Shown: in pieces, positions 1 to 62,448 of the stretch | Numbering within the stretch: position 1 is the stretch's first letter | Layout: each line of letters opens with the position of its first letter | Source of the DNA: Cyanidioschyzon merolae | Taxonomy: Eukaryota | Strand: one strand, 5' to 3' | DNA: 64,000 nucleotides | Assembly: GCA_000091205.1 (NCBI GenBank) | Contig: AP006491.2 | Translations under genes and position numbers: made by a program | The notes under the pieces: generated by a model | Told to the model about the DNA's origin: nothing | Seen by the model: the letters and a program-made list of their open reading frames with translations, nothing else | Database searches by the model: none

Positions 1-1665
1 GCTCGGGTGTCGCGTCTCCCGCGCTGGCCCCTGTGGCTTGATCCGCTGACACCTCTGCGGCCGCGCTGTCACCAGCAGCCACACCTGCCACCAAACCCAG
101 ACCTATGTTCAGGTGAGTCGTGATTGCTCCCAACGCGAGACATATAGCCAAAATAAACAGAATAGGACGCCCAAACTTTACCATACTACCTTCCCTCTAG
201 GCACTCAACGACTGTTGTCGATAACGAGCGTGCACCAGCGCACAGCGCAGAAGCATCGATTCGCTTCCGCCGCGCACGCATGAGAGGCACCCGCGCGTGC
301 ATCCATCGTCCTGCATGGAGGACGTGTCACGCGCGTGCGGATGCAATCGGGGGCGTAGGCATCGCTGCGGGGATGGGGGGGGGCCTAAAGCGGCATCGCG
401 CCCCCGCACTCGTGACAGATAAACGTGGGACACTGACCTGCTCCGCATGGTCACGTTTTTTGAATTTCCCCTTAAACATTGTTTTAAATTTGTAGCCTCG
501 ACATTCGACGTGCTTTGAAATGGCCGAGGGACTCCCACGTACTTCGGAGATTCTTGGTCGTGCTTTTTTTGGAGTGGCGCGACTGACACTTTTCTGCTAG
601 AAATTGTAGAGTCACCGGAGTCAAGATTATTCGCGACGCTCCTGAACACGGGGTCGTAAAACAGCCGATATCCGTATCCGATGCACACGCGCAAGCCTCC
701 GCGCTTCTCAGTTCCTCACATGTAGCATGCTCAAATCATACTTGCTTTAGGTTTCGGCGCTTCATATTCCAGGCAACTCGTGGACGCTGCAGTTCGCCCC
801 ACGTGATTGACGAGAAACGGTACTCGGCGTCGTTCGCTGACACGTTCCTCACAAGCCCATGCCGAACGTTCTTCGAACCACTCACGTCAAATTAGACTGG
901 AGCCCGTTCGAAATACAAATCATCAGCTCTCTGCGGGCATCAAAGAAACGGAATTCGACAACTGCATGGTACCTCTTATGAAATATGCGATCGGAGGCTC
1001 CCGTCTCCTCTGTTCACGTGGAACATGAGATGCTGTGCGTGAACCGCAGCGACCTTCTGAGCATGGAATTTTCGGACCGGAACGGGAGGCAGTGAAGCCG
1101 GGACCTGAACCCTATCACCAACATCCCTCTACTGCTTAATTCGAGCTGGATGGGCATCGGCGACCAGCATATCTACAGTCTGAGAGAAAAGAGAGCAAGC
1201 CGAAGCAGATGCAGTGCAAATCCTGCACTGCTTGGTGTTCATCACAGCATGAAGAGACCCGAACGTTAGCATCTACACCCGAATGATGTAGGTGGACTCA
1301 TTCAACTTTGTCCTGACTTTGGTACGGATCGCGAGTTGTGGCGACACCAGAGGCGATTTTTTCGGTCTCACAGCACGTTTCCACGTAGAGCAGAGATTCC
1401 CTCGTGCGCGCGTCGCATCAGGACCCGGAAAAGCGTGCATCATTCCAAGCCCTATTTCCAAGATCCACGATCCAAACCTCCCTTTGGAGGAACGGGTCGT
1501 TTCCCACGTTCCACCGTGTGCCGAGCCTACAGGAAGCGTCTATGGTAGTCGTTGAACCGTCGGTGCCGACGCAGCACAGATACAGAACGGCTTTGGTAGA
1601 CCGTTGCGGGAGTCGGCTTCAGAACGCCGCTCGCTGAAGCACGTTCGGCGCTTGAGCAACCTAGT

Positions 1666-3402
1666 ATGACCACCGAAATAGTAAAGAAGCAGCCGTCGAG
1701 AGAGGAAGCTTCACTAGACGGCGAAGGAGTGGACGTCGTCATCAACGGTTCCGATCTTCCGCAAGTGATTTGTGCTGCGTCCCTTGCGGGCCTGGGGTAT
1801 AAGGTGCTTCTTCTGGAGCCGAGCGAGACGTACGGCGGCTGCACGAGCGGACCACTTTCTGCAGCGCTGCTCTTTGGGGATCTTGACTCGGCCACGGATA
1901 ACAAACATCTCAAGGGCCCTGTACGCGTCGTAGCGAATGGCGGGAACCGGCTGACGGAGCTGCGAAGCCAAGCGCTTGCAAACGCCTCCGCCTTTGTCCT
2001 CGAGTTGCAGCCGCGCTTCTATTTCGCGGCTGATGCCTTCCTGGACCTTCTCGTCGGCAGTGGGGCGGCTTCGTACCTGTTTTTCCAGCCAGTAGACAGC
2101 TTGTTCTGGTTGCAGGCTTCAAGTAACACGGTTGCAGACACTGTCGTTATCGACGTGCCGTGCACCAAGGCCGCCATAGCGCGCTCCCATGACCTCGGAC
2201 TGACGGAGAAGCGCCTGCTCATGCGTTGCCTGCGCTCATGTTTTGTACTGAGTTCCGCGGCGACCGAGTACGATCCGCATAGCCCTGCAATGGATATAAC
2301 TGATGAGGAGCGACGAGAAATGAACCGGCGTTGGTCCGCGGCGGGAGACTCGGCCACGTTGCTTCAGCAACTCGAAGAAGCGTTCGCGTCGGCGCCCTCA
2401 GACCAACAATGGAAACGCGTTGCGGCGCTAGTACATGATATCTACGCTTGGGGCATCGAGGACATGCCGACGGCTCCCGCGACCTGGCGATGCAGTATCG
2501 ACCGCCTGGAGCGCTTCATTCAATCCGTCATGCGCTTCCACGCTGCAACGCCGTTTCTCTGCTGCAAGTACGGGAGCAATGAGATCATTCAGGCGTTCGC
2601 GCGCAGATGCGCTGTCAAGGGTGGCATCCTTGCAATGGACCGAAGCATTATGGCTTCAGCGGCTTGCGATGCGGAGCAGGGTCCAGACGAGAATGGCGCT
2701 GGGTTCGTAGTAGAGACGAATCACGGTGAAAGAATTTTCTGCAGGATCGGAGTCATCTCACCACAGCACGATTCAAATATCCATGTAGACGCGAAACTGG
2801 TACTTCGCTTCGCCGGGCTCACGAGCGAAGCGCTGCGACTTGGCGAACCAGGGCGTACGAATCGCGCTGCCACTGGCCACGCGTTTTTCATCGCTCGATT
2901 CAACGAGGGCGCGCTCGCCGCAGCGTCATCGTATTCGTCTGCCACGCTGTATATCTGGCAAATCAGTTCTGCGGCGGGTATCTGTATGCCTGGCTATTAT
3001 GTGGTCTATGCGGAATGTGATCTGCAGCGGTTGCCTCGTCAGCAGGTTGCAAATACCGAGTCGACAGCATCCGCTCTGCACACCTTCCGGGGCATGGTGG
3101 CGCACGTGCTTCGCTGCATCGCGCCCGCCGCGTGCGAGGCGTGCGATGACGACGTGGCCGTGCTCGAAAGCGTGTTTGCAGCATATGCCTTTTACGAGGC
3201 TCCCGCACCACCGTCTGGATTTTCCGTTCAAACACGTGATGGCTCAGCGAACGTGTCGGTTCCGTACTCGTACGCTCGGATGGACAGGATCCCGCACGCC
3301 ATCCGTCAAATCCTGGAGCATATCGTAGGCGACGACCAAAGAGCAGCATCATCCTTGGATGTGTTCTTTGGTATATCGCCGCCACCAGAGGGCTCCTCGT
3401 GA
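1666..3402 (+). CDS. Rab GDP-dissociation inhibitor / Rab escort protein (GDI/REP) family protein
   Basis: A 578-aa ORF with an ATG start. The N-terminal dinucleotide-fold motif 'VDVVINGSDLPQVICAASLAGLGYKVLLLEPSETYGG' matches the GDI/REP SCR1 region ('DVIVLGTGL...GKKVLHxDxxxYYGG'). Downstream blocks are arranged as in GDI/REP. Confidence 0.55.
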   Translation: MTTEIVKKQPSREEASLDGEGVDVVINGSDLPQVICAASLAGLGYKVLLLEPSETYGGCTSGPLSAALLFGDLDSATDNKHLKGPVRVVANGGNRLTELRSQALANASAFVLELQPRFYFAADAFLDLLVGSGAASYLFFQPVDSLFWLQASSNTVADTVVIDVPCTKAAIARSHDLGLTEKRLLMRCLRSCFVLSSAATEYDPHSPAMDITDEERREMNRRWSAAGDSATLLQQLEEAFASAPSDQQWKRVAALVHDIYAWGIEDMPTAPATWRCSIDRLERFIQSVMRFHAATPFLCCKYGSNEIIQAFARRCAVKGGILAMDRSIMASAACDAEQGPDENGAGFVVETNHGERIFCRIGVISPQHDSNIHVDAKLVLRFAGLTSEALRLGEPGRTNRAATGHAFFIARFNEGALAAASSYSSATLYIWQISSAAGICMPGYYVVYAECDLQRLPRQQVANTESTASALHTFRGMVAHVLRCIAPAACEACDDDVAVLESVFAAYAFYEAPAPPSGFSVQTRDGSANVSVPYSYARMDRIPHAIRQILEHIVGDDQRAASSLDVFFGISPPPEGSS

Positions 3403-4579: not shown

Positions 4580-5328
4580 TCAGATATGGCTGGCGGGGCT
4601 AAAGTCTCGGTTCACGAACTTTATGCGTTTATCGCCACTGGTTGAACTCATCAATGCAAGGAGTCCTCGAACTCGTGCCCTCAGTGCCATGTGCTGCTCT
4701 GACAGCTCTGTGTGCTTTTCTACCGCCGAGGCGCTCCGCTGGCTTCTCTCTATCTCGATCTTCTCAGGTGTAGAGCCCAGATCACTCCTTGGACTTCTCA
4801 TCTCTTCAAAAAATGAACCCACATGTTTATGCCGTTAGGTAAGGACCTTACCGGATGGAGAAGGACTTGCACGAGGAAGACTGCACGTGCCCCGGTGTGT
4901 CATCGTGTGCTGAACGCTTCAGCGATTCGCTCAGAGGAGCGATCATTACGTTTCACGATAGCAAACACTCCCTCGACGCGGTTGAACGTCGAAGCGTACG
5001 GAGGAATGAAAAGCAGCTCTACTTCCCGATAGAATCGGCAAAAGCTCGAACGCAAGGGCGATTGGTGAAATGCTACGTTGTGTGATAGGTGGACATCACC
5101 AGATGTCAGGCGGAGAGTCTTTAATGATTCGACAAAGTGATTGCTGTCGTATGAGCCTTCTCTACGAGCGAAACTGAGGTCGCCAAATATATCCACTGCA
5201 GCCAGAACGGAGAATATCATTCTTCTCTTCGAGTTTGATCTCTCATATAGCGAGTTGTCCTCTCTGCGAGTAGCCATATACGCTTCGATCGTTTCGTCCG
5301 GAGAAAGTCCAATTGACTGAAAAAACAA
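4580..5328 (-). pseudogene. degenerate TnpB/Fanzor-like RuvC nuclease remnant (copy C)
   Basis: ORF 4580..4822 ends '...LSEQHMALRARVRGLLALMSSTSGDKRIKFVNRDFSPASHI'. This aligns with the copy A C-terminus '...LTDDQMERRAKMRRLLESVSTINDKKLMEFVNRDFNAASNI' (RuvC-III motif). DNA at 4583-4700 aligns with 23223-23330. The upstream ORF 4900..5328, in another frame, shows only weak similarity to the copy A middle region. Confidence 0.5.
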
Positions 5329-22697: not shown

Positions 22698-22817
22698 CAG
22701 CACGCGGTGAAGCAGCCATCGATCCACGCCCTACTTCCAAGTTCCAAAACCCATAGATCTTCTCGGGTATGCTGGTGGTTTCATAATGTCTATCGTACGC
22801 CGAGCCTGCCGTGAGCG
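22698..22817 (+). repeat. dispersed ~110-bp repeat 'R', copy R1
   Basis: The sequence 'cagcacgcggtgaagcagccatcgatccacgccctacttccaagttcc...ctggtggtttcata...gccgagcctgccgtgagcg' is ~70% identical to R2 (25608-25723). It is related to the reverse complement of R3 (29120-29252). Confidence 0.55.
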
Positions 22818-22955
22818 TTTAAAATAGCGCGTAAAGCACCTCTGCAGTCGTGGCACGGAGACAGAACTGGGTTGCCATACCAGAGAGGGCGTCGGCTCGA
22901 GACCAAGCTCATCCATGCCAAAGCACACTAAGCCTATCCGAAACTGCGCCCTTGA

Positions 22956-22990
22956 CCACCACCACCACCAGCAGCAGCAGCAGCAGCAGC
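22956..22990. repeat. (CCA)4(GCA)7 microsatellite
   Basis: Read directly from the sequence. Confidence 0.9.
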
Positions 22991-23054
22991 CGCGAACGCT
23001 TTCCAAGCATCAAACGCTGCATAACCGGTGCACAGTAGCGGCGACCGACGCGAC

Positions 23055-24128
23055 CTAGACGAAATATCTCCCGCCGACATGCAGACGCCTAAAGGTCTTT
23101 AACGACCTGCCCCATACGAATGGCTTCAGCTTCCCCTTGTACAATTCGGCCCTGAGAGGTTGTCCAACAAAGTTGACTCGTGTCAACTCCGGGGCTCTCT
23201 TTGCCATTACTGCACATCTCCTGATATTGCTGGCGGCGTTAAAGTCCCGGTTCACAAACTCCATAAGTTTCTTGTCATTGATTGTACTTACTGATTCAAG
23301 TAGCCTTCGCATTTTCGCCCTCCTTTCCATTTGGTCGTCTGTCAGCCGTCCGTACTTTGCTATATCCTCAGGGCTCCGCTGGCACTTTTCCATATCGACC
23401 CTCTGGGGTGTACAACCCAGTTCATGGTGCGTATACGATGTTCGGAACTCATCTACAGGTATTGTAACAAAACGCCGTGCGCACTCTATGTACGTTCTCG
23501 TAGTTCGAGCTGGTGTACACCCGTTTTGGGTCTTCCAGCGCCCTGCTCCGTATGCTACTACGAGCCTCTGACTTTCATCCTCTTTGAGGGCACTCAACGG
23601 ACTGAAAAAGTTCGCGAACGCCCGCTGCCTCCCACAGCATAGATTCATACGCAAACGAGCACACCGGGGCTTTGTATACTCTTTCCACAGCGCCTCCCAG
23701 TGAGCAGCACGAACTTCACTGAACTCCCGAAAAGCATCAAAGTCCGCTCCGCGGCTCGTCACCTCGCTCAAGGCTTCCAGGTGATCCTTCATTCCTGAAT
23801 TCCATGTCTCAGTTTTCTTTCTTGCATTCCTTGTACCGGATTCTCGATAGTACCTTGCTCTCGAGAACCTCAACAGACGCATGTCTTTCTGACGCAAGTT
23901 GCCGGCAGTACCATCTTCCGCACGTTTGGGTACTGCGATGGTTATGATATTTGTGTTTCCGGGGTTCACACCTACCGCAAAGTCGTCACCGTGCACTTTC
24001 TGCATCGCAGGATCCGCCACCTTCTCATCTTCATGCTTTGTCACGGGCGCAGCCGAGGGCGGAACTGGACGATCCGCCTTCAAGCGCCGATAGCGTACAC
24101 ACATGGCTACTCCATCGGTTTCGATCAT
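23055..24128 (-). CDS. TnpB/Fanzor-like RuvC-domain nuclease homolog (copy A; RuvC-I Asp replaced by Asn)
   Basis: A 357-aa ORF with an ATG start. The RuvC-I-like motif is 'FAVGVNPGNTNIITIA' (N55; copy B has 'GADPGNT'). The RuvC-II motif is 'IPVDEFRTSY' (E227, codon 23448-23450). A degenerate zinc finger reads 'HHELGCTPQRVDMEKC'. The RuvC-III motif is 'FVNRDFNAASNI' (D295, 23223-23250). Confidence 0.8.
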   Translation of the reverse strand: MIETDGVAMCVRYRRLKADRPVPPSAAPVTKHEDEKVADPAMQKVHGDDFAVGVNPGNTNIITIAVPKRAEDGTAGNLRQKDMRLLRFSRARYYRESGTRNARKKTETWNSGMKDHLEALSEVTSRGADFDAFREFSEVRAAHWEALWKEYTKPRCARLRMNLCCGRQRAFANFFSPLSALKEDESQRLVVAYGAGRWKTQNGCTPARTTRTYIECARRFVTIPVDEFRTSYTHHELGCTPQRVDMEKCQRSPEDIAKYGRLTDDQMERRAKMRRLLESVSTINDKKLMEFVNRDFNAASNIRRCAVMAKRAPELTRVNFVGQPLRAELYKGKLKPFVWGRSLKTFRRLHVGGRYFV

Positions 24129-24217
24129 CCCAGTGAGTACTTTTGTTTGCTCACTTTGAGACGTTTGAAATCGAAGATATGCTTCCAGTACGTCTCCCGG
24201 TTTTCACCGGAGAACTC

Positions 24218-24457
24218 CTACCTGTTAACATTGAACTCGGGACTGGTCTCCTTTATGATGCCTTGGAGGACTCTGGAGCTGATAGTCACAAAATGTGACT
24301 TGATGGTGCACAACGGAACGCCATTGAAGCGCTTACCCATTAGGAGAGCCTTCCGTCCCTCCCACTCTTCATGTTTTCCTCTCTCAGCTTCATCTCCGCC
24401 TTGCGTTCGAGTTCTCGATTCAGGAATACGAAATAGAGCAGGATGATGTGATAACAT
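24218..24457 (-). CDS. element ORF2 (79 aa) upstream of the Fanzor-like ORF
   Basis: The sequence '[47 protein letters not shown]...' is conserved in copy B (60832..61182, where it is 116 aa). Its function is unknown. Confidence 0.4.
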
Positions 24458-25101
24458 CTTTTATCATCTTTTTTTTTCATATCTGATGCCTTTTCTGCTG
24501 GATTCGCCATTCCCAAGACTGGACAGTGCTCTTGTACAACCGCACGGATTACAGAAGCTTCATTCGTGCTCTCGTTTGGCGCCTTCTTGTCGACAAAATC
24601 GATCTCATCTTCATGCTTGCGATCGTTCGTGATGCCGTTGATAATCGCCCATATTCCTTTGCGAGAGATGCACGGGTAACGTGCAAACACGGCGCGTATC
24701 ATGAAACGTTCGAGGTTCATAGTCGAATGGTTCTTCAGGTTCGTGATGTACTTCATCGTTCCGTATATGTAAATATGACGGTCACCCCTGTATCGAGTAC
24801 CGTTGAAGCTGTAGAAGGGATGTTTTTCGTGGAGGGCGTGAACCCACTCATTTTCCTTTCGCGTTGCCTCTGTAGCAAGCATGAGGTGACGAATAAAGAT
24901 CATGTCGAAGAACTCGTCCGGAATCTCGACCGTTTCCATGTGCTTCACGTCGTGATACATCTCACTCCCCGAATGCATCAGTCCTGACGACGCCTTGACG
25001 ATGGTCTTGGAGTACGAGTCGACACGGTTCCTAATGGCCTCTCGCAACTTTTCCTTGTACGGATCCTGGATATGTTCAAGAAGAAAGCTTTTCGCCACCA
25101 T
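24340..25101 (-). CDS. element ORF1 (253 aa), uncharacterised
   Basis: The ORF has an ATG start and is conserved in copy B (60284..60825, split by a stop and frameshifts). No recognisable catalytic motif is present. It overlaps ORF2 in another frame because an A9 run (A7 in copy B) sits at the junction. Confidence 0.45.
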   Translation of the reverse strand: MVAKSFLLEHIQDPYKEKLREAIRNRVDSYSKTIVKASSGLMHSGSEMYHDVKHMETVEIPDEFFDMIFIRHLMLATEATRKENEWVHALHEKHPFYSFNGTRYRGDRHIYIYGTMKYITNLKNHSTMNLERFMIRAVFARYPCISRKGIWAIINGITNDRKHEDEIDFVDKKAPNESTNEASVIRAVVQEHCPVLGMANPAEKASDMKKKDDKRCYHIILLYFVFLNRELERKAEMKLREENMKSGRDGRLS

Positions 25102-25607
25102 CTCGTCGTACAGCCGTCTTTCTTGTCGCCTTCGACATAGGGCCTCTCCCGTTTTGATTCTTTCTCTCTTCCGTTTCTTCTGGACTTGGAATTTTTTTTG
25201 TTTTTTCTGGTAGCCGGCGACACTGGGCCTCCAGGATTGTCGACTTGCTCCTACATAACTTTCCTTTTTTAGTTTTTTTAAAAAGAATACTCTTTAAACG
25301 CTTCTCTTATATACTGCGAAAAAACACTCGAGTATTTTTACTTGAGGGTTGAAACAGAAATGAACTGAAAACTATACTTTGCTACGACCTCAACGGAAAT
25401 CCGACTTTTACAGCTGAGCAACACGCTCCTGCTCAGGATCACGTTTCCCTTCAACAGCGGCTTACGTGTCGCGTCTCACGCCTGCCTGATCCCCCAGTTG
25501 CGCTCACCGGGCGCGATTCTCTTTTTCATAGACAAGACGTTTACTTGTGCCAGCATTCTCCGATTACGCGCATTTTTCTTTTCTTACCATTTTTTATGTG
25601 TTTTTTT

Positions 25608-25723
25608 CAGTGTGCGGTGACGTATCCATCAACCCCCTACTCCCAAGTTACATCATCTAAACTTCTTCTCTGATATTCTGGTCGTTTCATACGTCCTAGC
25701 ATGTGCCGAGCCTACCGAAAGCG
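25608..25723 (+). repeat. dispersed repeat 'R', copy R2
   Basis: The sequence 'cagtgtgcggtgacgtatccatcaaccccctactcccaagttacatcatctaaacttcttctctgatattctggtcgtttcatacgtcc...' is ~85% identical to the reverse complement of 29163-29252 (R3). It lies just outside the 5' end of element copy A. Confidence 0.7.
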
Positions 25724-28700
25724 ACAGCAATGGCGCCTATAGAACATGCGCTGCAATGCATTGCATGCGCCGCCAAGACCAAGCCCGGAGACTAACCAAC
25801 AAGTCACTTGCAGCCTTCCGAGAAATGATAACGAATTATCAGTACATTAACGAAGAAGAGACACCAATAGAGGACTGTACAATAGGAAAAGAGACCCAAC
25901 CAGATACGGAGAAGGAGGCACAAAGTCCTCATGATCCACTTAGATGCAAAATATCCAGAGAGAGCAGCTCAGGAAAGAGCCCGAAGAAGAAGAAGGCCAA
26001 CGAGAAAAAATAGATGAATAGAAAAAAGAACTCCCGAACGAGCCCATCACAACTTATTCCCCGGAAAGAGCACCCCAGCGGGAACTCAAGAAAACCGTCA
26101 CCAAACCCAGTCACCTGCTCACAGCGCTGAAGATCCGAAATGCCGTGCATGCAAATCTTTAGACCAATTGGCACGCGAGTTTGTAGATGGGAATCAGAAG
26201 ACTGCCAGAGAACTGGGACTGCTTGCACCAGATCGCAACAGTTTCAAACCTCAGTACCTCAAACGACGTACCAAAACTCGGATTGTTGAATGCTACCGAC
26301 TCAACAAGATCCTCAACCGCACCGACATACGCACCAACGCCGGAGACAAGGAAGCGAAGGCAGCGCTACCGGCGCTACAGGCACAACATGAGGACGCTAT
26401 CAAAAGAAAGAAGAAACTTTCCAGAGAAGACAAACGAGAGGATCGAAACCGCAAAATCGACTCCCTGACGGAATTTATGCTCGAGAGCACCAACGAAGAT
26501 GAGACCTGGCGCTCCATTCGATCGAGACTGGACCCACCAAAAAAGTGCCTGGGGCTCACACCAATCGTTTATAAGGAAGCGCTGAGGACGGAGCGTGCCT
26601 CAGTGAATGAGGCCTGGACGGACCACGGCACAGAGCTGCATGAAGACGCAACTGGGCACTGCCGAAACCGAATCTATTGGCACCAATATGCTGCACAACT
26701 ACCGCGCCTCGACCCGGTACCGGAATGGAACGACCCAATCTTCTGGCCTGAATCTGTTCGGGCCCTGCTATGCTCAAGCAACCGCAAAACACCTGGCATT
26801 GACGGTATCCCTGCGGAGTGGATGAAACTGGTGACCCCAAAAGACGAGACAACAGGGACACCATCGATACCAGATGAACCTGACACAATCTTAGGCAAAC
26901 GCCTTGTGGAGCTCATTCAACGTATGTTCGAAGAAGCGTACATCCCTGATATATGGAGGACTGTCGAGGTCGCACCGATCCTCAAAAAGGACTCCCACAC
27001 ACACAAAGACATGAACATCTACCGGACTATTCGCCTCATCCTGTCAATCATGAATCTACTTTGCGCCATGCTCACGAACCGGATCCAGAGGCGCCTCGAG
27101 GAACGCAAGTTCTTCGCCCCAGAACAGGCTGGATTCCGGAGCCGCGATGAGTGCATGAACCATGCCCTGACCCTCATTGAAGTGGCGCAACGTCGCTTTA
27201 TTCGTGACCGACAACCAACTTACGTATGCTTCACCGACTTCCGAAAGGTCTTTGACACGGTCCCGCATGATGCTCTCTTTTTGAAGATGGAACGAGCCGG
27301 AGTCTCCAGAAAGTGCTTAGCGTTCTTCCGTGCGCTCTATGCAGACTCGTGGATGCGCATCCGACTGGGCGACAGCTCAAGAACCCCTTGTATAAGAATA
27401 CGCCGTGGACTACAAAAGGGCGAGCGCGCATCCCCGCTCCTTTTCAACATCTTCATCAACGATCCGCTGAAAAACTGCAGACAATACGGGCTTGAGGTGC
27501 CGTGGATAGACTGGGGAGATGCCCGATGAGGAGCCCTCACATAGGAACCGCCTCGCAGGCCTTCTACTTGCGGACGATGTCGTGCTGTTGGCACCCGCCC
27601 CGGAAACGCTTGCGGCTAGCATGCAACAAGTCAGCACCTGGGTCGATCGCTGGGAGATGAACGTAGGAGCATCGAAGTGCGGCGTCATGGCCATCCATGG
27701 AGACTCGCAGCGCATTCGCAATCGCTCGTGGCGGTTGCAGAATCAGGAAATTCCGATCGTGGAAAACTATCGCTACCTGGGGGTCGGTCTAACGCCGACG
27801 CTCGACGAAAAGGCACACGTCGACGAGATGATCGCCAAGATGCATAGACGTACAGCGATCGCACGTCCATTCCCATCCGACCCCTCTATCTGCATAGCAA
27901 TTCGTACCAGGGCACGAAGGATGTGTATCATCCAGCCTGCGACCTGGGGTGCTGAGTGATGCGGCATGAACCACACAAATGCCTCGCGTCCGCAGACAGC
28001 CGCCAACAGGGCAATGCGACTCGTTGTCGTTGTTTGATGCTCAGTGCAGAGCAGAGCAACCACCGCGCTGGCACTCGGACTTGAACTCCAAATACCCTCG
28101 ATAGAAGCGATAGCAGCAGGCTGCCGGGCACGTATATGGGCCAAAAGGGTCCACCAAGCGCACCTGGTTCAGTCGGAGTTTCATGCAAACCCCAACGCAC
28201 CGCAAGATCACTTGGATGAAACCAACGCATATTTGGCTGAAGCGCCTCTTAGGCGAAAATGCGCTCGAATCGTTCCCCAGGAATGTAGAAGACTTCAGAC
28301 GCCTGAAGCGAACGGTCCAAACGCCAATATGGGAAAGTAGACACGGTACCAGTCGCGCGAGTAACGCCGGCTTGACTCTATACCGGAAATAGAACCTATT
28401 ATACACATGCAAGTACTGGTTGGAGGCGCTGGAATTCCCCGGACTTGCTCGAGGTACCCAGTGGCTCGCCAAAATCCGCGTTGGTGGCTTCTGGCTACCA
28501 GCACCGGCTCTAAGCCGTATAGGAATACTGGAATCGCACTGGGAGTCACACTGTCCCTGCTGTGGAGACGAGAGCCCCCGAGACGCTGACACATTTAGGC
28601 CTACAGTGCCCGCACTGGAAGCAGGAGCGCAGCGAGCTCCTTGGAGGACAGCAGCAGCTGGGCATCACCATGATAGTCGAAGGCCGGACACTCACTCTGA

Positions 28701-29140
28701 GTGTAGCACTGGCAACTGGTGGTCCGCTAACGGAGCCTCAGCGCTCATTAATGGCGAACAAACGCAAATGCTACCTTCTAGGCGGAAGGTCCAACGAATC
28801 GGATGCGCATACGGGTCCAGTGCTCTCTGCGTCTACCCACTGTGGTGGGTTTCAAGCACAAACCCGCATTGCCAACCGACAACAACGCGCTCCATGCATG
28901 ACCAGGAAGGAGAGAGGCAGCTCCCAGAATTCATCCTAACAACCAAGTTTCTCCAGCGTGTCGTGCAGCGAAGGCAAGCCTCCATCCGCAGACTGTCCGA
29001 GCACGAACTGACGACGAGACCCGATTCTACGTCGGGTGAAGCACGTCTCGAGCCGACGCCCTCTGAGGTATAGAAAAGCTGTTCTAGCTCTATGAACTAT
29101 CTGCTCCAGCATTTAAGGCGCAAAGGCGGATACGGAGGGG
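25724..29140 (+). mobile_element. 5'-truncated, degenerate non-LTR (LINE-type) retrotransposon
   Basis: A reverse-transcriptase domain is followed by a C-terminal 'HLGLQCPHWKQERSEL' CCHC-like motif (28589-28630). No endonuclease domain or ATG start is present. The RT region has several frame breaks. Confidence 0.75.
26168..27959 (+). pseudogene. LINE reverse transcriptase (frameshifted at ~27519-27529)
   Basis: LINE RT motifs are present: 'GIDGIPAEWMK' (motif 0), 'EQAGFRSRDECMNHAL' (motif 1), 'CFTDFRKVFDTVPHDAL' (motif A) and 'GLQKGERASPLLFNIFINDPL' (motif B). In the next frame come 'LLLADDVVLLA' (F/YADD box) and 'SKCGVMAI'. The track ORF starts at TTG. Confidence 0.8.
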
Positions 29141-29252
29141 CAGGTACAAGGCACACACAATAGGACGTATGAAACGACCAGAATATCCGAGAAGAAGTAT
29201 AGGTAATCTAACTTGGAGGGAGGGGGTTTTATGGATACTTCGCTGCGCACTG
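29120..29252 (-). repeat. dispersed repeat 'R', copy R3 (inverted relative to R1/R2)
   Basis: The reverse complement of 29163-29252 reads 'cagtgcgcagcgaagtatccataaaaccccctccctccaagttagattacctatacttcttctcggatattctggtcgtttcatacgtcc'. This matches R2, so R2 and R3 form an inverted pair bracketing the LINE. Confidence 0.7.
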
Positions 29253-50388: not shown

Positions 50389-53300
50389 ATGAAAACGCGA
50401 CTCAAGAGTTCCAGGGACGCATCACCGCTAGCTTCAAGCGCTGACGTGGAGCAAGGATTCAACGGTGCGAGCGTTCGCCACTACACAAACGGCTGTTGTA
50501 CCGCGTGCGCTTGCGTGTTTCGCGGCGCCCTGCACCAGAGCACTGAATTCTGGAACATCTTGAGCAGCATACGCTTTCGTTGGGTTTTCCTCCACGGTAT
50601 TCTACGAATGGAGTGTATCGTGTAGATTGAACGAACGTTGCGGGAAGACTTCATGGAGTCTCAGCTGTCTAGCGAAAAAATGCGTTACTTATGCAGAGAC
50701 GCCACAGGATGTGAAGTTTTCGTACCGTTGCTACGAACCGTGATGAAGAGCCACGAATGGATAAGGTACAATGCTCGGGCTTGTATGCGAGACCGTCGCC
50801 CGCCGAACAAGACTAAATCGATTTCGTCATGAAATGCGAACACTTTGGACGGGAATGACAAGCGTCCGTCGCACTCGAAAAGACTCTGTTCAGGAGCCAT
50901 CGCATACCTGTCTATGAGAAGTCAAAGAGCGGCAAAATGCTGTTCGTAAAGAAACGACAAGCGACGATTCCGACAAGGTCAACTGCATCAGCGATTCAAT
51001 CGAGTAGTCATGTACAAATCGCCGAACAGATAGAATCGATAAACTCCGGATCTCTCGATGAAGCGAGCATCGCGGTTGCCCCTCCCCGCATCCTTCTGAC
51101 ACGCTCGTAGGCGACGTCGCTTTGCATCACTCAAAATGGATCGAGGAGTACGCAGCTGATACTGGCGTTGCGCTGCTCTTCGTGGCAACCTCGTCTCGCT
51201 GGATCAATTCAATCGACGACGTCGTCTCTCGTGTCAAACGCTATTTTCACGCGCACGGATCAATGGACGAGTCGTTCGCAACCGGGTCTCTGCTCTTGCA
51301 AATGTCGTTTTCTAGCTTCACCAGCCCTGAACTGCTGTGCTCCCCATCTGCTCTTGGGCGGGAGGGAGCGAAAGGACCCGCTTCGGTGCGTGGGCGTGGT
51401 CGCCATGGACAAGTTGACGAAAACGTACTTGAGAAATCGTTAAAACCAATAGACATAGAAAAGGCGCGCTTCGGTCCCACGGTCCACCCAGTGTACCAGC
51501 ATCTCAATAAACAAGACGTATACGGAGTATAGCTCCCACATCTATGTCACCCATTCCAGTGAAGGAGATGGTGAAGAAGGAGCTGGCCTCGGCGAGCAAG
51601 TATGAAGATCTCGAACAACTTCGCGAAGTGCATTGGCGAAACCTGTACAAGTTTTTTTGTTTCCCGGAACGATCGAGACTGACGGAATATCTACCTGTTT
51701 GCGCTTTTCGCGAATCTCAGACCTGCGTCGAGCATGGAGACTCATTGGCGACCGTTCAACGGAGACAGAGGGAAGGGATTCGCGGTGAACGGGGATGCTC
51801 GGTTGGAGAAAATCCTCGCCCGCGTCTGTTTCTAAATCAAGCGGACAGAGCCAAATACCTACGCAGAAAGCAGATGAAGTTGCTTAGCTTCTCCAGGCGC
51901 TATGTTATCGAGTATCGGCTATGCAGCACATCGGGAGGCATTCCAGCGAGTGGAATGACGACATCAGGACTCAGGTCAGGGATGTCAGGACCCCATTGAG
52001 TAGAGGCTGATGCGCTCCGGCTTGCATTCACAGAATACATCAGCATTCAACTGGCTCATGCGGACCAAATTGGGCAGGAATGTCTGGGGCAGCGCTGGGA
52101 CAGCGAACGGGTTCGGTTGTGCGAAGGTAAGAAGCGTGCACTCGCCACCGTTTTTAATGAGTTGGAAAAGGACCTAACCGATAAGTCGCATCGTTTGAAG
52201 TTTGCTGCTGACGCAGGGCAAAGTACAGCGCGCAATGGTTACACTCCTGGTCCTCTGGCGCGAGCGTACCAGTTTAGGAATCGGTTCTGGACAGTTGCAT
52301 GAATGAGTTCACGATGGAATACACGCGTCACGAGCACGGGCACTTGGTGAACCTGTTAGACAAGAAGCAGAGCCCGATGCGCGATATGATGTGCGCTAGG
52401 CCGACTGAACATGAGAAGCTTGCCAAGGTGTGATCCTACCAGCAACCATGCGTGGAAGCACTTTCTGCACTGAGACTTGAACGCTTCGATCACCATCCGG
52501 GAATTTCTCGGGCTGTCAAGTGGCTTTATGGTGTGCGAAGCTCCCAGCGAAACCTGTTATACGGATGATAAGCGTTGTGCTGAAATACTGAGGGCTTTGG
52601 ATGAAAAATGAGAGGCTAAGAGCTAGAGAGGATTGAAGGCTGGCCCAAGCACAGCACTGGTAAGCCAAGGTCAGCACTTCAGCGAGGCTGGAGCGTCCTA
52701 CATATGCGCCAGGAGTGGTGTGTCTGGGCAATCTGTGAAGGTTAATGGTTTCCCTTCATTCCATATTACCTGAGGATACCGGACGCACGGCAGCTTGAGC
52801 CTACCCGTGAACGCAGGGCGCATCGGGCTGCGAGGACGTCTCCGCCTCTTGCTCAAGTTTATCAGGTATCGGTGGTTCGATACCCCTCATCGACGGTATC
52901 CAGTATCCCTCTATTCTTCATGTATGTACGTGTGCGTGTCCATTGGTTATCCATGCTTGTTTCGCGGACACAGCGTCGGTGACGCTGCTCCATGGGCTTC
53001 TTGGCGCGGCAGTGCGCACCGAAGACTTGGGCAGTATTGCAACGGGCCGGAGACTCGGCAAAGCCGTGTGATGCGGATGTTGTAAGCCGAGCTGCGGGTT
53101 ACCCGCACTGACGCTCGCTCAAGATCGTTATGAGGTTCGCGACCTCGTTTGCGATGGACAGGGCTGTCCAAGCTCGGAACAAAGACGGGCCCACCGCGTC
53201 GCATGGCATGAGCACGTGGCACTCTCCGGTTTCGACTGTCGTTGGAACGTCGTGAATGCTTCGCCGGTGGTCCAGGGTTGCGCCCAGCGAATACCGTGTC

Positions 53301-54481
53301 GCGCAGTGCCGGGCCAGGAATAGCTCGCTCACGAGTGCTCGTATTGCGATATACGTGCGCAGATTCGAAAGCGAGCGAGAGAGCGCGCTCACTGAGCGCA
53401 AACCGCGAAGCATATGCAAAGCCTTTTCATTTCTGAATGTGAATCGCTTGCAATGCCGCTGGCGGATAGCCACGAGCACCACGTTACGCACCGACAACGG
53501 ATGCAGGGATGCAAGAATCCAATTTCGCTACCAAGAACAAAAATATTTGCAAACTAACCACTAGATAACCGCTTCTTCTCCTCTTTAAGCGTATGAGTTG
53601 AAAGAAGGAAATGTTTTCCTTGTATTCGAAATTTGAACTTCACGGCGGAAGTTCGCAAGACCCTGACGTGTCTGCAAGACTATTGCTCTGCACGCCTTCG
53701 CGGTGGTAGGTGCTGTGGCGAGACCTGAGCAGCTCGTCCCCAATACAGCTTATTCTGGGTTCAGCGACAGTCAGGCTGTGTCCGGGCGTCGAAGCCCTGG
53801 ACGCAAAGGACTCCAGCGCTTCGCACTGTCCCAGGCAGTAGGTCGATCTGCGTAGTTTGCAGGCTTCCAGAGTTATCTTGCATCCCGACCGCGTGCCGAG
53901 CAAACCACGACTCGCACCGACGTCCTCAGTGATATAGCAAAGCAGAGCTGTTCCCGCGCCGCATCCTCATCAGCGGTATAAGCGCTATCGCGGACGATCC
54001 GAGCAGTCACTCGACGTACGATAGAACGTATGAAGCAATCTGAATACCCGAGATTTCGTACCTTTCATGGAACTTGAAGCCGCGGTCCAGCGTGATGGAC
54101 GCTTTCACGTAATTGAATATCCATCCTGCAATCTGGTGTCCATCGTCCACAGAAACGTCGATACCCCGAATGGGAATCATTTCAGGTTTCCGGGCAGCGA
54201 TGTCCGTTTCCGTTGAGTCGATACAGCGCAGCGTGCGCTGCCGTCCATTCGTCAGCGGCGAGCGCCGCCGTCGTGTCGCTGGCGATGCGGTAGGGCGCTT
54301 TTCCAACGTTCGTGCGGAGCGCTGGCGAGCTTGACGTGTCAGCGCTTATCGTGGAGCAGACAAATCCGTCGGACCTCTTGGCAGAGCAGCGCCTCCGGGT
54401 TTGTATTATTTTGTGAACGACTTGTTTCTTTTCTTCAGGACCTCGTGTTGGAACTTGTAACTTGGAAAGCACTGGTGAATT

Positions 54482-58154: not shown

Positions 58155-60283
58155 GAAAGGGATCTATTGCTTACAAACGCAGAGAGTTCACTCTGACGGT
58201 GAACATGATCAAAACTGCTCGCTACCACGAAGTCCGGGGCTCACGCTGCCGCTACAGCAGAGCGCACCAGCGGCGCAGCAGCAGCAGCAGATCGTGGATG
58301 CGTGCGCGCAGGTGGCGCCCCGCCTCGAAGCATATACTCCATGAAAACGGAAGACTGAACTGCTCGCTGTGTTCCTGATATTCTTTTTCGTTTGTTTCCA
58401 AAGTTTTTTTTACTAGATACAAATCCACGACATACTCAGTGCAGTGATGAGGGACTAACGGACTCGTACGTAGATTTTGGATTTCCGGTGGTGTTTTCGG
58501 AGAGGCTCGTTCGATGTTTTGCCGCCGGAGTTCTGGACGTCACCGGGCTCAAGGTAATTCGGGAATTCATGGAATAAGGATTCGTAGAATAACCGATATC
58601 GCTATCCGATTCATTCGCACTAGCCTCAACGGTTGTCCCTTCCTTAAACGTAAGACGCTCGAATCACGCGCTCTTCAGATTACCGATCGATCTGTGTTGA
58701 AGCAACTCGCGCGCGCAGCAGTGCATGCCGTTTGGTTGACGACGAATACAAGTCGCTGTGCTCCCTTGGCGACTTGTTCACAAGCTCATGTCGTGTGTTC
58801 GTTGAACTTGTTATGTCTAATACTAGATTAAGTTCGGAAAACCAATCCTTTCCTCGTTGTGGCCTTCCGCCAAGCGGTGCGCATCAGCAGCATGATACCT
58901 TTTAAAAAATATGCTCACGGAGGCTGTCGTCTCTTCTTTTTACGTGGATGAGGGTCTTGGGCTCAGACTTTAGTCACTGTAGCGATCCCTTCGAGTCGAG
59001 ATCGTCGCAGGATCGAAATTTCTAGGCTTGAACTCCGGCCTGGATTCTCCTTCCGCTTCTTGTTCTATCATGCACAACATCGCATGCCACAAACCTTTTA
59101 TCGAAAGGAAGAGCGTACGCCTGTGCATGCAGCGAATGCAAAACTCGCCGAGGGGACCACGAAGAAAAAACCCGTGATTCCATTTTTTTCAATTTTTTAC
59201 AAAACGTTTACCCTGGTCGGTGATCCATCTACTTTCAAGTTCCATTACCCATACGTCTTCTTGCATATGCTGGTTGTTTCGTAGGTTCTATCGTGCGCGG
59301 TGGCTCCCGCTAGCGCCCACTGTAGCGCCTATTGCGTCGGTGCGGTCATAGCACGTAGACAGAACAGCCTAGGCTTACCATTGAACACGCTGCGACCAGG
59401 GCGATGCCCAGACGCAGCCTAGCTACCTTCACTCCCAGAATAAACTGCGTTGCGGACGAGTTGCTCAGATTTCACTAAAACACCTGCCACTGCTGAGTCG
59501 AACGGAGCACGAGCCTGGCAGACTCGCCCGGCTCGCGTGATCTTCTACCTATTACGTAAAATTTTTCCAATTCGGAAACCTTTTCTCTCCATTCGCGTTT
59601 TTTGTAGAGGGGCAAAGCAAGATACTTATATGCTCGTGAACCGTACGTCTGTGTTCTTTATTTTAAATAGCGCGCTCGATACGCGCACCTGGGCGATCAG
59701 GCCGTCACGAGATACGGCGCGAATATAGCCGTTGAAGGGAAACGCGACTAGGACAACGCGTTTTCCTGGTAGGGGACATGAGACTCCAGATTAGGTGCGC
59801 GCACTGTTGCTGGGGGCCTTGGCGAACGTATGACAACGGCATCGCATGGCGAAATAAAGTGTGTAGATCCAACGAACAAGTTGGATTCGCGATGTAGTCG
59901 TAGCAAGGCATAGTTTTCGGTTCATTCGTGTTTCAAACCTCAAACAAGTGTATTCAAGTGTTTTTTCCCACTATATGACATAAGCGTTCAAAAAGCGTTC
60001 TTTTTCAAAAAAAAAATAAAAAAGGAAAAGTTATCAAAATGCAAGTCGACGATCCTGGAGGCCAGGTGTCGCTGGCTGCCAGAAAAAAAAACAAAAAACA
60101 GTACCGAGTCCAGAAGAACGGGAGAAGACGAAGAAGCAAAGGTAGGAGGTCCTACGTCAAAGGCTGCAAGAAAGACGACACTATAACGAGCTGGTTGTGA
60201 AAGCCTGTCTTCTTGGACAGATCAAGGTTCCGTGCAAGAAAAAGTTATGAGGTGCCATTCGAAACCGTTTTGAGCCGAACTCC

Positions 60284-60825
60284 ATGACTGTAATAAACGC
60301 GTCGTCAGGACTGATGCATTTGGCGAAGGAGATGTATCGCGACGTGACGCACATGGAAACGGTCGAGATTCCGGACGAGTTCTTCGACTTGACCTTTATT
60401 CGTCACCTGATGCTTGCTACAGAGGAAACGCGAAAGGAAATGAGCGGGTTGACGCCCTCCACGAAAAACATCCCTTTTACAGCTTCAACGGTACTCGATA
60501 CAGGGATGATCGTCATATTTACATATACGGAACGATGAAGTACATCACGAACCTGAAGAACCATTCGACTATGAACCTCGAACGTTTCATGATACGCACC
60601 GTGTTTGCACGATACCCGTGCATCTCTCGCAAAGGAATATGGGCGATTATCACTGGCATCACGAACGATCGCAAGCATGAAGATGAGATCGATTTTGTCG
60701 ACAAGAAGGCGCCAAACGAGAGCACGAATGAAGCTTCTGTAATCCGTGCGGTTGTACAAGAGCACTGTCCAGTCTTGGGGATGCCGACTCCAGCAGAAAA
60801 GGCATCAGATATGAAAAAAAGATGA
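60284..60825 (+). pseudogene. element ORF1, copy B (disrupted)
   Basis: The sequences 'SSGLMHLAKEMYRDVTHMETVEIPDEFFDLTFIRHLMLATEETRKE' and 'MKYITNLKNHSTMNLERFMIRTVFARYPCISRKGIWAIITGITNDRKHEDEIDFVDKKAPNESTNEASVIRAVVQEHCPVLGM' sit in two frames. The N-terminal ATG of copy A is CTG here and is followed by an in-frame TGA. Confidence 0.55.
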
Positions 60826-60831
60826 TAAAAG

Positions 60832-61182
60832 ATGTTATCACCTCATCCTGCTCTATTTCGTATTCCTGAATCGAGAACTCGAACGCAAGGCGGAGATGAA
60901 GCTGAGAGAGGAAAACATGAAGAGTGGGAGGGACGGAAGGCTCTCCTAATGGGTAAGCGCTTCAATGGCGTTCTGTTGTGCACCATCAAGTCACATTTTG
61001 TGAGTATCGACTCCAGAATCCTTTACGGCATCATGAAGGAGATCTGTCCGAACTTCGATGTTAGTGGGGAGGGCTTCACCGGTGAAAACCGGGAGACGTA
61101 CTGGAAGCATATCTTCGATTTCAAACGTCTCAAAGTGAGCAAACAAAAGTACTCACTGGGACGATCGAAACCGATGGAGTAG
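60832..61182 (+). CDS. element ORF2, copy B (116 aa)
   Basis: The sequence '[49 protein letters not shown]...' continues through '[32 protein letters not shown]'. In copy A the equivalent region is interrupted. Confidence 0.35.
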
Positions 61183-62234
61183 CCATGTGTGTACACTATC
61201 GGCGGTTGAAGAAAGATCGTCCAGTTCCGCCCTCGGCTGCGCCCGTGACGAAGGATGAAGATGAGAAGGAGTCGGATCCTGCGACGCAGAAGGTGCAGCA
61301 TAACGACTTTGTCGTTGGCGCGGCGAAGCAGGGAGAAAAGAAGGAGGCGGATCCTGCGATGCAGAAATTGCAGGATAACGACTTTGTGGTAGGCGCGGAC
61401 CCCGGGAACACGAGTATCATAGCCATCTCAGTACCCAAGCGTGCGGAAGATGGCATTGACGGCAACTTGTGTCAGAAAGACATGCGACTTTTGAGGTTCT
61501 CGAGAGCCAGGTACTATCGAGAATCCGGTATCATGAATGCGAGGAAGAAAACTGAGGCATGAAATGCAGGAATGAAGGATCACCTGGAAGCTATGAGCGA
61601 GATGACGAGCCGCGGAGCGGACTTTCAAGCTTTTCGGGAGTTCATGGGAGGTCCGCGTTGCTCACTGGTATGCGCTGTGAAAAGAGTAGACCAAGCCCCG
61701 GTGGGCTCTTCTGTGTGTGAATCTGTACTGTGGGAAGCAGCGTGCATTCGCGAACTTTTTCAATGAGTAGAGTGCCCTCAAAGAGGATGAAAGTCAGAGG
61801 CTGGTAGTGGCGCATTGAGCAGGGCGCTGGAAGACCCAAAAAGGGACTACGCCAGCTCCAACGACAAGAACATACAAAGAGTGCGCACGGCGTTTCGTTA
61901 CAATACCTGTAGATGAGTTCCGAACATCGCATATACACCATGAGGTTGGGGGGGGGGGGGGTGCACACTTCAGAGAGTGGAGATGGAAAAGTGCCAGCGG
62001 AACCCTTAACATATGAAAAAGTACAGAGCGCTGACGGAAGAGCAAATGGAAAGGAGGGCGAACGTTCGTGGACTCCTTGCACTAGTAAGTACAACTACCA
62101 ACGGCAATAAACGGATGGAGTTCGTGAACAGAGACTTTAACGCAGTTATCAATGTAAGGAGATATGCGGTGATGGAACAGAGACCTCCAGAGTCGACACG
62201 AGAGAATTTTGTTGGACAACCTCTTAAGGTTTAA
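61164..62234 (+). pseudogene. TnpB/Fanzor-like nuclease, copy B (frameshifted; RuvC-I Asp retained)
   Basis: Frame 0 reads '[23 protein letters not shown]...DNDFVVGADPGNTSIIAISVPKRAEDG' (D retained). It carries an internal 66-bp tandem duplication of the 'DPAxQKxQxNDFVVGA' segment. The C-terminus lies in another frame: 'LTEEQMERRANVRGLLALVSTTTNGNKRMEFVNRDFNAVINV'. Confidence 0.6.
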
Positions 62235-62448
62235 CTATATGAGAAAAAATGGAAGCAGTAGTAGGTGGCCGGTCGAAAAAAACTGGTAGGCGTCTGCACA
62301 TCAGTCGGAGACTTCTTGTCTAGGGCGCAGGTCACCAGTACTGTATACCGCCGGTGGCAACGTTTTTCTTTTGAAAGGCGTTCGCTAGCAGCGTCCGAGG
62401 AAGTAGCAACCGCAGCGCGGTAGGCGTCAAGCCTGGTGGACGGGTCGA

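Follow-up and report, generated by a model that had tools for sequence, protein, structure and literature searches.

A RuvC reading frame in Cyanidioschyzon merolae as the probable 3' half of a decayed Fanzor1 transposon copy

What should be made of an open reading frame which carries the motifs of a Fanzor nuclease, but in which the first catalytic residue has been replaced? This question is raised by a 357-aa frame with an ATG start (ORF357) at positions 23055..24128, on the minus strand, of a 64-kb stretch of the C. merolae genome, referred to here as the window. ORF357 is identified by the listing of open frames, by a profile hidden Markov model (HMM) and by a structural model. It could be read as an intact gene, as a retained but catalytically dead derivative, or as the remnant of a transposon. 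We consider it highly probable that ORF357 is the 3' half, open to this day, of a pseudogene that was once a copy of the multicopy Fanzor1 transposable element CMe-1A, and below we set out the evidence for this reading together with that for its alternatives.

Motifs, fold and family of the open frame

The surroundings of ORF357 are those of a eukaryotic chromosome, as a first-pass annotation made from the letters alone had proposed: seven flanking ORFs exactly match annotated proteins of strain 10D (within BAM80086-BAM80105), namely GDI, pBrp, a GST-like protein, G6PD, MSH6, glutamine synthetase and a WD-repeat protein. The DAP decarboxylase gene adjoins the locus, both in 10D and in the metagenome alleles discussed later, and the window holds four Fanzor-derived loci. 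ORF357 is not part of the 10D annotation, and its exact sequence is not in the protein collection, whereas each annotated neighbour tested is there.

The three RuvC motifs can be read directly at the positions that the annotation had given them, all on the minus strand. GVNPGNT stands at RuvC-I, where codon 55 (23964..23966) is AAC and encodes asparagine in place of D431 (GAC) of the family consensus; PVDEFRTS (VDEFRTS in its shared part) stands at RuvC-II, with E227 (GAG, 23448..23450) kept from consensus E603; and RDFNAASNI (preceded by N, as NRDFNAA) stands at RuvC-III, with D295 (GAC, 23244..23246) kept from consensus D672. The corresponding motifs shared with the family consensus are GADPGNT, VDEFRTS and NRDFNAAINI, and D295, N297 and N301 of the RuvC-III pattern RDxNAAxNI are all retained. 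ORF357 therefore has NPG rather than the Fanzor1 DPG motif with its catalytic aspartate. The change amounts to a single GAC>AAC transition, as had been claimed, and a second copy in the window (copy B) indeed encodes aspartate at this site (VVGADPGNT). A degenerate HHCC-type finger had also been noted between RuvC-II and RuvC-III, and the stretch between these motifs, YTHHELGCTPQRVDMEKCQ, does contain two histidines and two cysteines for it. These are H233, H234, C238 and C250 only, the second knuckle is without cysteines, and the canonical CxxC...CxxC zinc finger (TNB) is absent. E227 occupies the alternative RuvC-II glutamate position, seven residues ahead of HH..C, in a column that is invariant among relatives; a DPG motif and an alternative RuvC-II glutamate are typical of Fanzors (PMC10711439, PMC10530073). 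From start to end, ORF357 comprises the last WED strands, RuvC-I, a helical insertion, RuvC-II, the degenerate TNB/zinc-finger region and RuvC-III.

Could three such motifs have arisen by chance in a protein whose fold is unrelated to RuvC and TnpB? Direct searches, taken by themselves, leave room for such a view. Pfam and NCBIfam scans of ORF357 and of a second frame upstream (ORF253, see below) gave no relevant match, PF07282 (TNB) included in the case of ORF357, and Pfam matched none of six close homologues, the precomputed assignment PF26935 being the uninformative DUF8286. Neither phmmer with ORF357 nor hmmsearch with a shallow profile of the close family found a Fanzor among PDB sequences, and AlphaFold, when given 19 close sequences as its alignment, returned a pLDDT of only 34.

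Deeper sampling reverses this picture. The protein database holds 302 close matches to the family, and an exhaustive profile search with a threshold of E<=1e-3 collected 1441 cluster representatives, among which lengths of 600-700 aa are common. A deep profile built from 66 distant full-length relatives and one member of the window's own family shows no variation across its 67 sequences in the columns of the proposed D, E and D or of the RuvC-III N..N. It reaches three solved Fanzor1 structures, namely PpFz1 of Parasitella parasitica (9cf0, E=5.3e-21), SpuFz1 of Spizellomyces punctatus (8gkh, E=1.9e-11) and GtFz1 of Guillardia theta (9cer, E=1.7e-6), with alignments that pass through DPGR, DEFRTS and NRD..A.N, and 28 of the 67 relatives weakly match PF07282 (Cas12f1-like TNB). 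An HMM of the 66 distant relatives alone, in which the window's own family was left out, matches ORF357 at E=1.5e-72 over positions 324-600 of 613. With 71 diverse sequences, AlphaFold2 models ORF357 at a pLDDT of 80.5 and a pTM of 0.76, as a RuvC fold with a helical insertion. The top seven Foldseek matches of this model in the PDB are all Fanzor1 (SpuFz1, PpFz1 and GtFz1; E from 1e-9 to 3e-6, query TM-scores 0.44-0.54), followed by Cas12o, Cas12X, the mimivirus Fanzor2 ApmFz2 and Cas-phi (E from 1e-5 to 2e-3). Since both the profile searches and Foldseek arrive at solved Fanzor1 structures, ORF357 is a RuvC/Fanzor1 protein. The two checks that the first-pass annotation had suggested, a profile search and a structure prediction, thus come out in favour of its TnpB/Fanzor assignment, and specifically of Fanzor1. 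An unrelated fold, which is refuted by the deep profile, the distant-relative HMM and Foldseek, and which is also at odds with the identity of the sequence to the published Fanzor1 CMe-1 (see below), can be regarded as practically out of the question.

The relationship to characterised systems is nevertheless a distant one. Solved Fanzor1 proteins (SpuFz1 8GKH, PpFz1 9CF0, GtFz1 9CER) share with CMe-1 the RuvC fold with a helical insertion, a DPG-type RuvC-I, a glutamate in D/xE(F/Y)(R/K)TS ahead of the zinc-finger region and an NRD...N RuvC-III, but sequence identity is only 10-18%, and in the CMe-1 clade HH..C..C, without a cysteine in the second knuckle, takes the place of the CxxC...CxxC ligands, with an additional helical insert in this region. 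Bacterial TnpBs (IS200/IS605, IS607) and Cas12 proteins have a distant RuvC architecture in common with CMe-1, which differs from them in its eukaryotic host, its much greater length (734 aa), the absence of TnpA, and the Fanzor-typical DPG motif and alternative glutamate (PMC10711439).

A known element and its broken upstream half

The element behind ORF357 has a name. In the founding Fanzor paper (Bao & Jurka 2013, Mobile DNA 4:12, PMC3627910), CMe-1A is the sole Fanzor1 family listed for C. merolae: an element of about 3 kb without TIRs, present in about 150 copies that are ~80% identical to a 3169-bp consensus, whose single-exon gene encodes the 734-aa CMe-1 protein and whose 5' 635 bp are another repeat, TE-N2_CMe (PMC3627910). 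We took the consensus from supplementary file 2 of that paper and aligned it to the window. One copy (copy A) lies at 23026..25492 on the minus strand and covers consensus positions 670-3139 at 85% identity. The other, copy B, which tblastn and blastn of the region against the window had brought to light, lies at 59226..62380 on the plus strand and is full length (consensus 82-3169), with 86-88% identity in its two main blocks (735-3169) and 77-79% in its TE-N2-like 5' part; about 9 stops and some 10 frameshifting indels interrupt its gene. The frame of ORF357 corresponds to codons 377-734 of the CMe-1 gene, so that its start is the internal Met377, and by tblastn it has ~79% amino acid identity to consensus residues 363-733. 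Set beside the published segments VVGADPGNTNIITIA ... VDEFRTSYTHHELGC ... NRDFNAAINIRRC, it is the same protein save for drift. By alignment, then, the element that holds ORF357 is an already known one, a copy of CMe-1A as published in 2013: it comes from the same genome and family, it shares motifs and 3' tail with the consensus, and its divergence fits the published figure of ~80%. What sets copy A apart from the consensus is the loss of the TE-N2_CMe-like module (consensus 1-669) from its own 5' end, the 2 stops and 4 net frameshifts that interrupt codons 1-376, and D431N along with nine other private changes at conserved residues. Metagenome contigs contain a further 427 related stretches.

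The frame had been described as intact, which holds for the open frame and not for the gene, because the first 376 of its 734 codons lie upstream and are disrupted. They remain recognisable in two further minus-strand frames. ORF253 (24340..25101), in another frame than ORF357, is an N-terminal fragment of the same ancestral gene (consensus codons ~38-293) and matches the distant-relative HMM at positions 30-257 with E=4e-39, and a 79-aa ORF in the third frame (24218..24457), the last ~40 residues of which correspond to consensus codons about 294-345, matches it at positions 257-287. Together with ORF357 (324-600) they are collinear on one HMM, which identifies the three frames as pieces of a single broken gene, HMM positions 30-321 being found upstream of ORF357 in frames other than its own.

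The lesions between them can be placed individually, all on the minus strand. The ancestral ATG (25256-25254) is followed at once by a TAG (25253-25251; the whole at 25251..25256), where codon 2 of the consensus is GAA. A -2 frameshift lies at about 25200 (codon 19), a +1 frameshift at about 25150 (codon 36) and a -1 frameshift at about 24377 (codon 293); an in-frame TAG at 24220-24218 (codon 346) ends the 79-aa ORF; and a 1-nt deletion within 24130..24145 (~24140, codon 372), again a -1 frameshift, parts ORF357 from the frame upstream. The lesions at codons 293 and 372 are common to copy B. The six to seven disabling lesions thus all precede codon 377, and the 358 codons that come after them are free of any, an asymmetry that a uniform model would produce in roughly 1-2% of outcomes.

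Such an uneven distribution could speak for the protection of the 3' half, an argument to which we return, but the history of copy A offers a simpler account. In its N-terminal half, copy A has 89.7% identity to copy B and at most 84.2% to every other copy, whereas in its C-terminal half the identity to copy B is 82.4% and other copies are closer. Given this identity and the common deletions at codons 293 and 372, the N-terminal half would share a recent history with copy B, and copy A as a whole is most likely a mosaic, in which gene conversion or recombination has joined sequence from different copies. Strain 10D and one metagenome allele (L001) are set apart by a tract of 23 mismatches at 24320-24180, which points to conversion that is still going on. 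The asymmetry would then be explained, since the upstream half stems from an already dead lineage and the frame under study was chosen as the longest among ~150 copies. Seen in this way, copy A shows how relics of transposons can convert one another even where the genome is very compact.

Selection, decay and the question of a dead derivative

Two interpretations of the asparagine had been put forward, namely a catalytically dead protein which may still bind RNA or DNA, and an early step in decay. The site itself is strongly conserved: aspartate is invariant at RuvC-I in the 66 distant relatives, and 69 of the 75 non-allelic family copies have D at position 431; of the remainder, 4 have G, 1 has H, and copy A alone has N. 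Loss of a catalytic residue nonetheless appears routine in the decay of the CMe-1 family, because D431 (lost in 6 of 75 copies), E603 (11/74) and D672 (8/70) are all missing from other copies too. Furthermore, D431N does not stand alone. Of the 45 columns in which the 66 distant relatives reach a conservation of >=90%, ORF357 departs from 15, and ten of these differences are private with respect to the CMe-1 consensus, namely H12R, D55N, W156C, Y164C, K167R, N176S, P208R, L241P, G275R and P312A.

Substitution patterns allow the older and the younger history of the sequence to be separated. Measured against the consensus, Ka/Ks is 0.29 for ORF357 and 0.48 for the broken N-terminal half, values which might be taken as a mark of constraint. 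In ORF357, however, the signal sits in the substitutions held in common with other copies (57 synonymous and 42 non-synonymous; Ka/Ks about 0.2) and hence predates copy A; this shared pattern indicates purifying selection in ancestors that would have been active. Private substitutions number 13 synonymous and 35 non-synonymous, with a Ka/Ks of about 0.8.

A third line of evidence comes from natural variation at the locus, for which strain 10D can be compared with five metagenome contigs (L001 and L084-L087), all adjoining the DAP decarboxylase gene. The five alleles differ from ORF357 at 2-10 of 1074 nt and all have N55. Among the six alleles, which diverge by at most 1%, we counted 14 non-synonymous and 0 synonymous codon variants. 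The DAP decarboxylase gene, used as a selection control, gave 2 synonymous and 10 non-synonymous variants in an over-long GTG-start ORF, too low a divergence for the control to be of use. The ORF357 frame is open in all six sampled alleles, as their own low divergence would lead one to expect; the stop codon is lost in one, and in several the called protein begins only at Met9, so the start codon of ORF357 does not appear to be kept across alleles. Neither the private substitutions, nor the six alleles, nor the conserved columns gave any sign of constraint on ORF357. With ten private changes at near-invariant residues and an own-branch Ka/Ks of ~0.8, the decay is late-stage, not an early step.

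It is against this background that a retained, truncated, RuvC-only Fanzor should be weighed, one that D431N has rendered catalytically dead and that would bind omega-RNA or DNA. Such a protein could regulate active CMe-1 copies or, as a dominant negative, inhibit them, in the manner of TldRs, the nuclease-dead TnpB derivatives in which a RuvC catalytic residue is likewise replaced (PMC10705468). Several observations are compatible with it: the 357 codons are open, and N55 present, in 10D as well as in the five alleles from the environment; no disabling lesion lies outside the upstream half; and the confidently modelled structure still has E603, D672 and a large part of the RuvC core. In Fanzor1 proteins, the REC region and most of the WED region hold the omega-RNA/target duplex. 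By comparison with solved structures, it is these that ORF357 would be missing, as the corresponding N-terminal part of solved Fanzor1 proteins lies upstream of profile position 324 and ORF357, which covers positions 324-600, lacks the full-length Fanzor1 architecture. Moreover, replacements extend to near-invariant residues besides D431, private substitutions are near-neutral, the alleles stand at 0 synonymous to 14 non-synonymous variants, and the conserved 3' hairpin of the element is destroyed in copy A (see below). The ORF also has no start context, its ATG being the first internal Met after a frameshift; the stop is lost in one allele and the first ATG in others; and the frame does not figure in the 10D annotation. 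TldRs, in contrast, are full-length, conserved, under selection and have kept their guide RNA (PMC10705468), whereas ORF357 is truncated, evolves neutrally and sits inside a decayed transposon copy. The notion of a dead nuclease that still binds RNA or DNA therefore finds no support here, and we regard it as very unlikely. More specifically, that the asparagine-bearing RuvC remnant is expressed and retained across strains, for instance as a protein that titrates omega-RNA or interferes with active CMe-1 Fanzors, strikes us as extremely improbable. If such a retained protein did exist, the lesion-free run of 357 codons would not be a matter of chance.

We therefore return to the reading of ORF357 as the open half of a pseudogenised CMe-1A copy. 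The ancestral gene would have encoded a 734-aa Fanzor1 with a basic N-terminus, possibly a nuclear-localisation signal. Its N-terminal half, by comparison with solved Fanzor1 proteins, would have contained REC and the greater part of WED, and the remainder a split RuvC, with D431, E603 and D672 as its triad and with a zinc-finger (TNB) insert of degenerate form. To judge from the homologues SpuFz1, GtFz1 and PpFz1, this transposon-borne protein was probably a DNA endonuclease that cut by means of its RuvC domain under the guidance of an omega-RNA, and the guide RNA may have come from the 3' end of the element, as in characterised Fanzor1 systems. In copy A the first 376 codons would have been wrecked by the stops at codons 2 and 346 and the frameshifts at codons ~19, 36, 293 and 372, while the 3' half would have stayed open by chance as it drifted, D431N being one of about 48 private substitutions. 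No function would be expected of ORF357 itself.

The ends of the element and the wider family

If guide RNAs of this kind derive from the right end of the element, the sequence beyond the stop codon deserves attention. Across 61 copies, the sequence stays conserved until 59 nt beyond the stop, where the similarity breaks down at the predicted right end of CMe-1A. In copy A the remnant of this tail, a candidate omega-RNA or right-end region, would span 22996..23054 on the minus strand, where the alignment stops at 23026 and 22996 is a projection. The CMe-1A tail has a potential CGCC/GGCG hairpin with a terminal hairpin after it. When defined by hand, the tail hairpin is paired in ~75% of cells, as opposed to 23-60% for shifted controls, with almost no covariation, so that it carries little weight as evidence. 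In copy A the arms GUCGCCG / UUAUG-C are unable to pair, and the consensus alignment ends 30 nt short. Other searches for RNA gave no signal: RNAalifold found no consensus structure in the 3' 270 nt of 62 copies, and Rfam returned no match, either for the 3' region or for the window in its entirety. Synonymous divergence along ORF357 drops mildly in the last ~70 codons, a pattern that we rejected as the mark of an overlapping RNA since a similar drop occurs at codons 241-340. By analogy with characterised Fanzor1 systems (PMC10432273, PMC11423790), we infer that the CMe-1 family has an omega-RNA.

At the other end of copy A lies a reverse transcriptase (RT) frame (26168-27529), recognised in the ORF listing and by Pfam as RVT_1 and oriented head-to-head with the Fanzor gene. 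One may ask whether the two genes make up one composite system borne by a retroelement. The same RT/Fanzor junction recurs in metagenome loci (L002/L003 and L015), and inverted TE-N2-like repeats stand on both sides of the block. Nevertheless, an RT is present in just 3 of the 33 loci that have at least 3 kb of upstream sequence, and on this ground we rejected an obligatory RT-Fanzor composite element. In addition, identity between loci amounts to 90-92% in the RT part as against about 84% in the Fanzor part, and both copy B and the published consensus have a TE-N2-like module there instead. A composite system is thus unlikely, and the comparison suggests a younger RT element that was inserted beside or into old Fanzor copies.

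Taken by itself, copy A would be an ordinary transposon relic of little significance. Its recognition nonetheless illustrates that Fanzors overlooked by Pfam and NCBIfam can be found through the reading of motifs. It also draws attention to the CMe-1 family as a whole, a Fanzor1 lineage without canonical zinc-finger ligands in an alga of acid hot springs. It is the intact members of this family, and not copy A, that may be of interest as thermotolerant editors.

The reverse-transcriptase element beside copy A

Within the window, copy A, a broken copy of the Fanzor1 transposable element CMe-1A, stands head-to-head with a reverse-transcriptase (RT) element at 25636-29223, whose RT ORF (26168-27529, +) matches Pfam RVT_1. 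Inverted segments resembling TE-N2_CMe flank the RT element at 25636-25710 and 29031-29223. Three further TE-N2_CMe-like segments, which match the CMe-1A consensus in its 5' module, lie at 22730-22901 (+), 53597-54147 (-) and 59226-59747 (+), the first of them directly downstream of copy A and in the orientation opposite to the Fanzor gene. Together with 29045-29090, this downstream segment forms a 46-nt inverted repeat enclosing the entire Fanzor and RT block.

The same RT junction was found again in two further distinct metagenome-contig loci (L002, 814-2710; L015, 5529-6572), and in the recurring arrangement CMe-1A consensus position ~670 adjoins the RT 5' end, the TE-N2 module being absent there. 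Identity at these two loci is 90-92% in the RT part, as opposed to only ~84% in the Fanzor part, and the junction is present in only 3 of the 33 loci with enough upstream sequence. The RT element may be a younger retroelement that favours the 5' boundary of the Fanzor unit as an insertion site.

Variable regions and possible sequence exchange in the Fanzor unit

Immediately N-terminal to RuvC-I, proteins of the CMe-1 family carry tandem acidic units of ~20-25 aa (KHEDEKEADPATQEVQDNDFVV) in variable number, from 1 in copy A up to about five in some copies, as read in family proteins P0002, P0011, P0012 and P0016 (columns ~270-400 of the family alignment A1) and at window 23990-24060. The beta-strand entering the catalytic Asp comes from the last of these units.

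The TNB zinc finger lacks its canonical CxxC...CxxC ligands in the CMe-1 clade, and likewise across much of the broader clade formed by ~600-aa relatives (alignment A3). The CMe-1 region instead reads HH..C..C, its second knuckle lacking Cys (residues 228-293 of ORF357, the open C-terminal part of copy A; window 23250-23447), and in the AlphaFold model a pair of short helices is predicted here, at lower confidence (pLDDT 65-78).

Strain 10D and L001, an environmental allele of the copy A locus, differ by 23 mismatches within about 140 nt (window 24180-24320; L001 200-340), while elsewhere they are ~99% identical. Such a cluster would fit a tract of gene conversion with a different CMe-1A copy as donor, or else a chimeric assembly of the metagenome contig.

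At the 3' end of copy A, a minus-strand (GCT)n(GGT)n microsatellite (22960-23005; gctgctgctgctgctgctggtggtggtggtgg) is found where the CMe-1A 3' tail would be expected to have its final ~30 nt.

Other Fanzor relics in the window

A short isolated CMe-1 fragment (4583-4783, -) covers consensus residues 612-679 at 53% identity (76% at the nucleotide level). A second Fanzor1-like relic at 51606-52299 (+), recognised by amino-acid similarity to CMe-1 and by the distant-family HMM, is far more divergent: it shares 34% amino-acid identity with CMe-1, and its HMM matches fall at 321-344 and 433-524 of the profile, with E about 1e-11. Since Bao and Jurka (PMC3627910) recorded a single Fanzor1 family for C. 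merolae, this relic may be the leftover of an older one.
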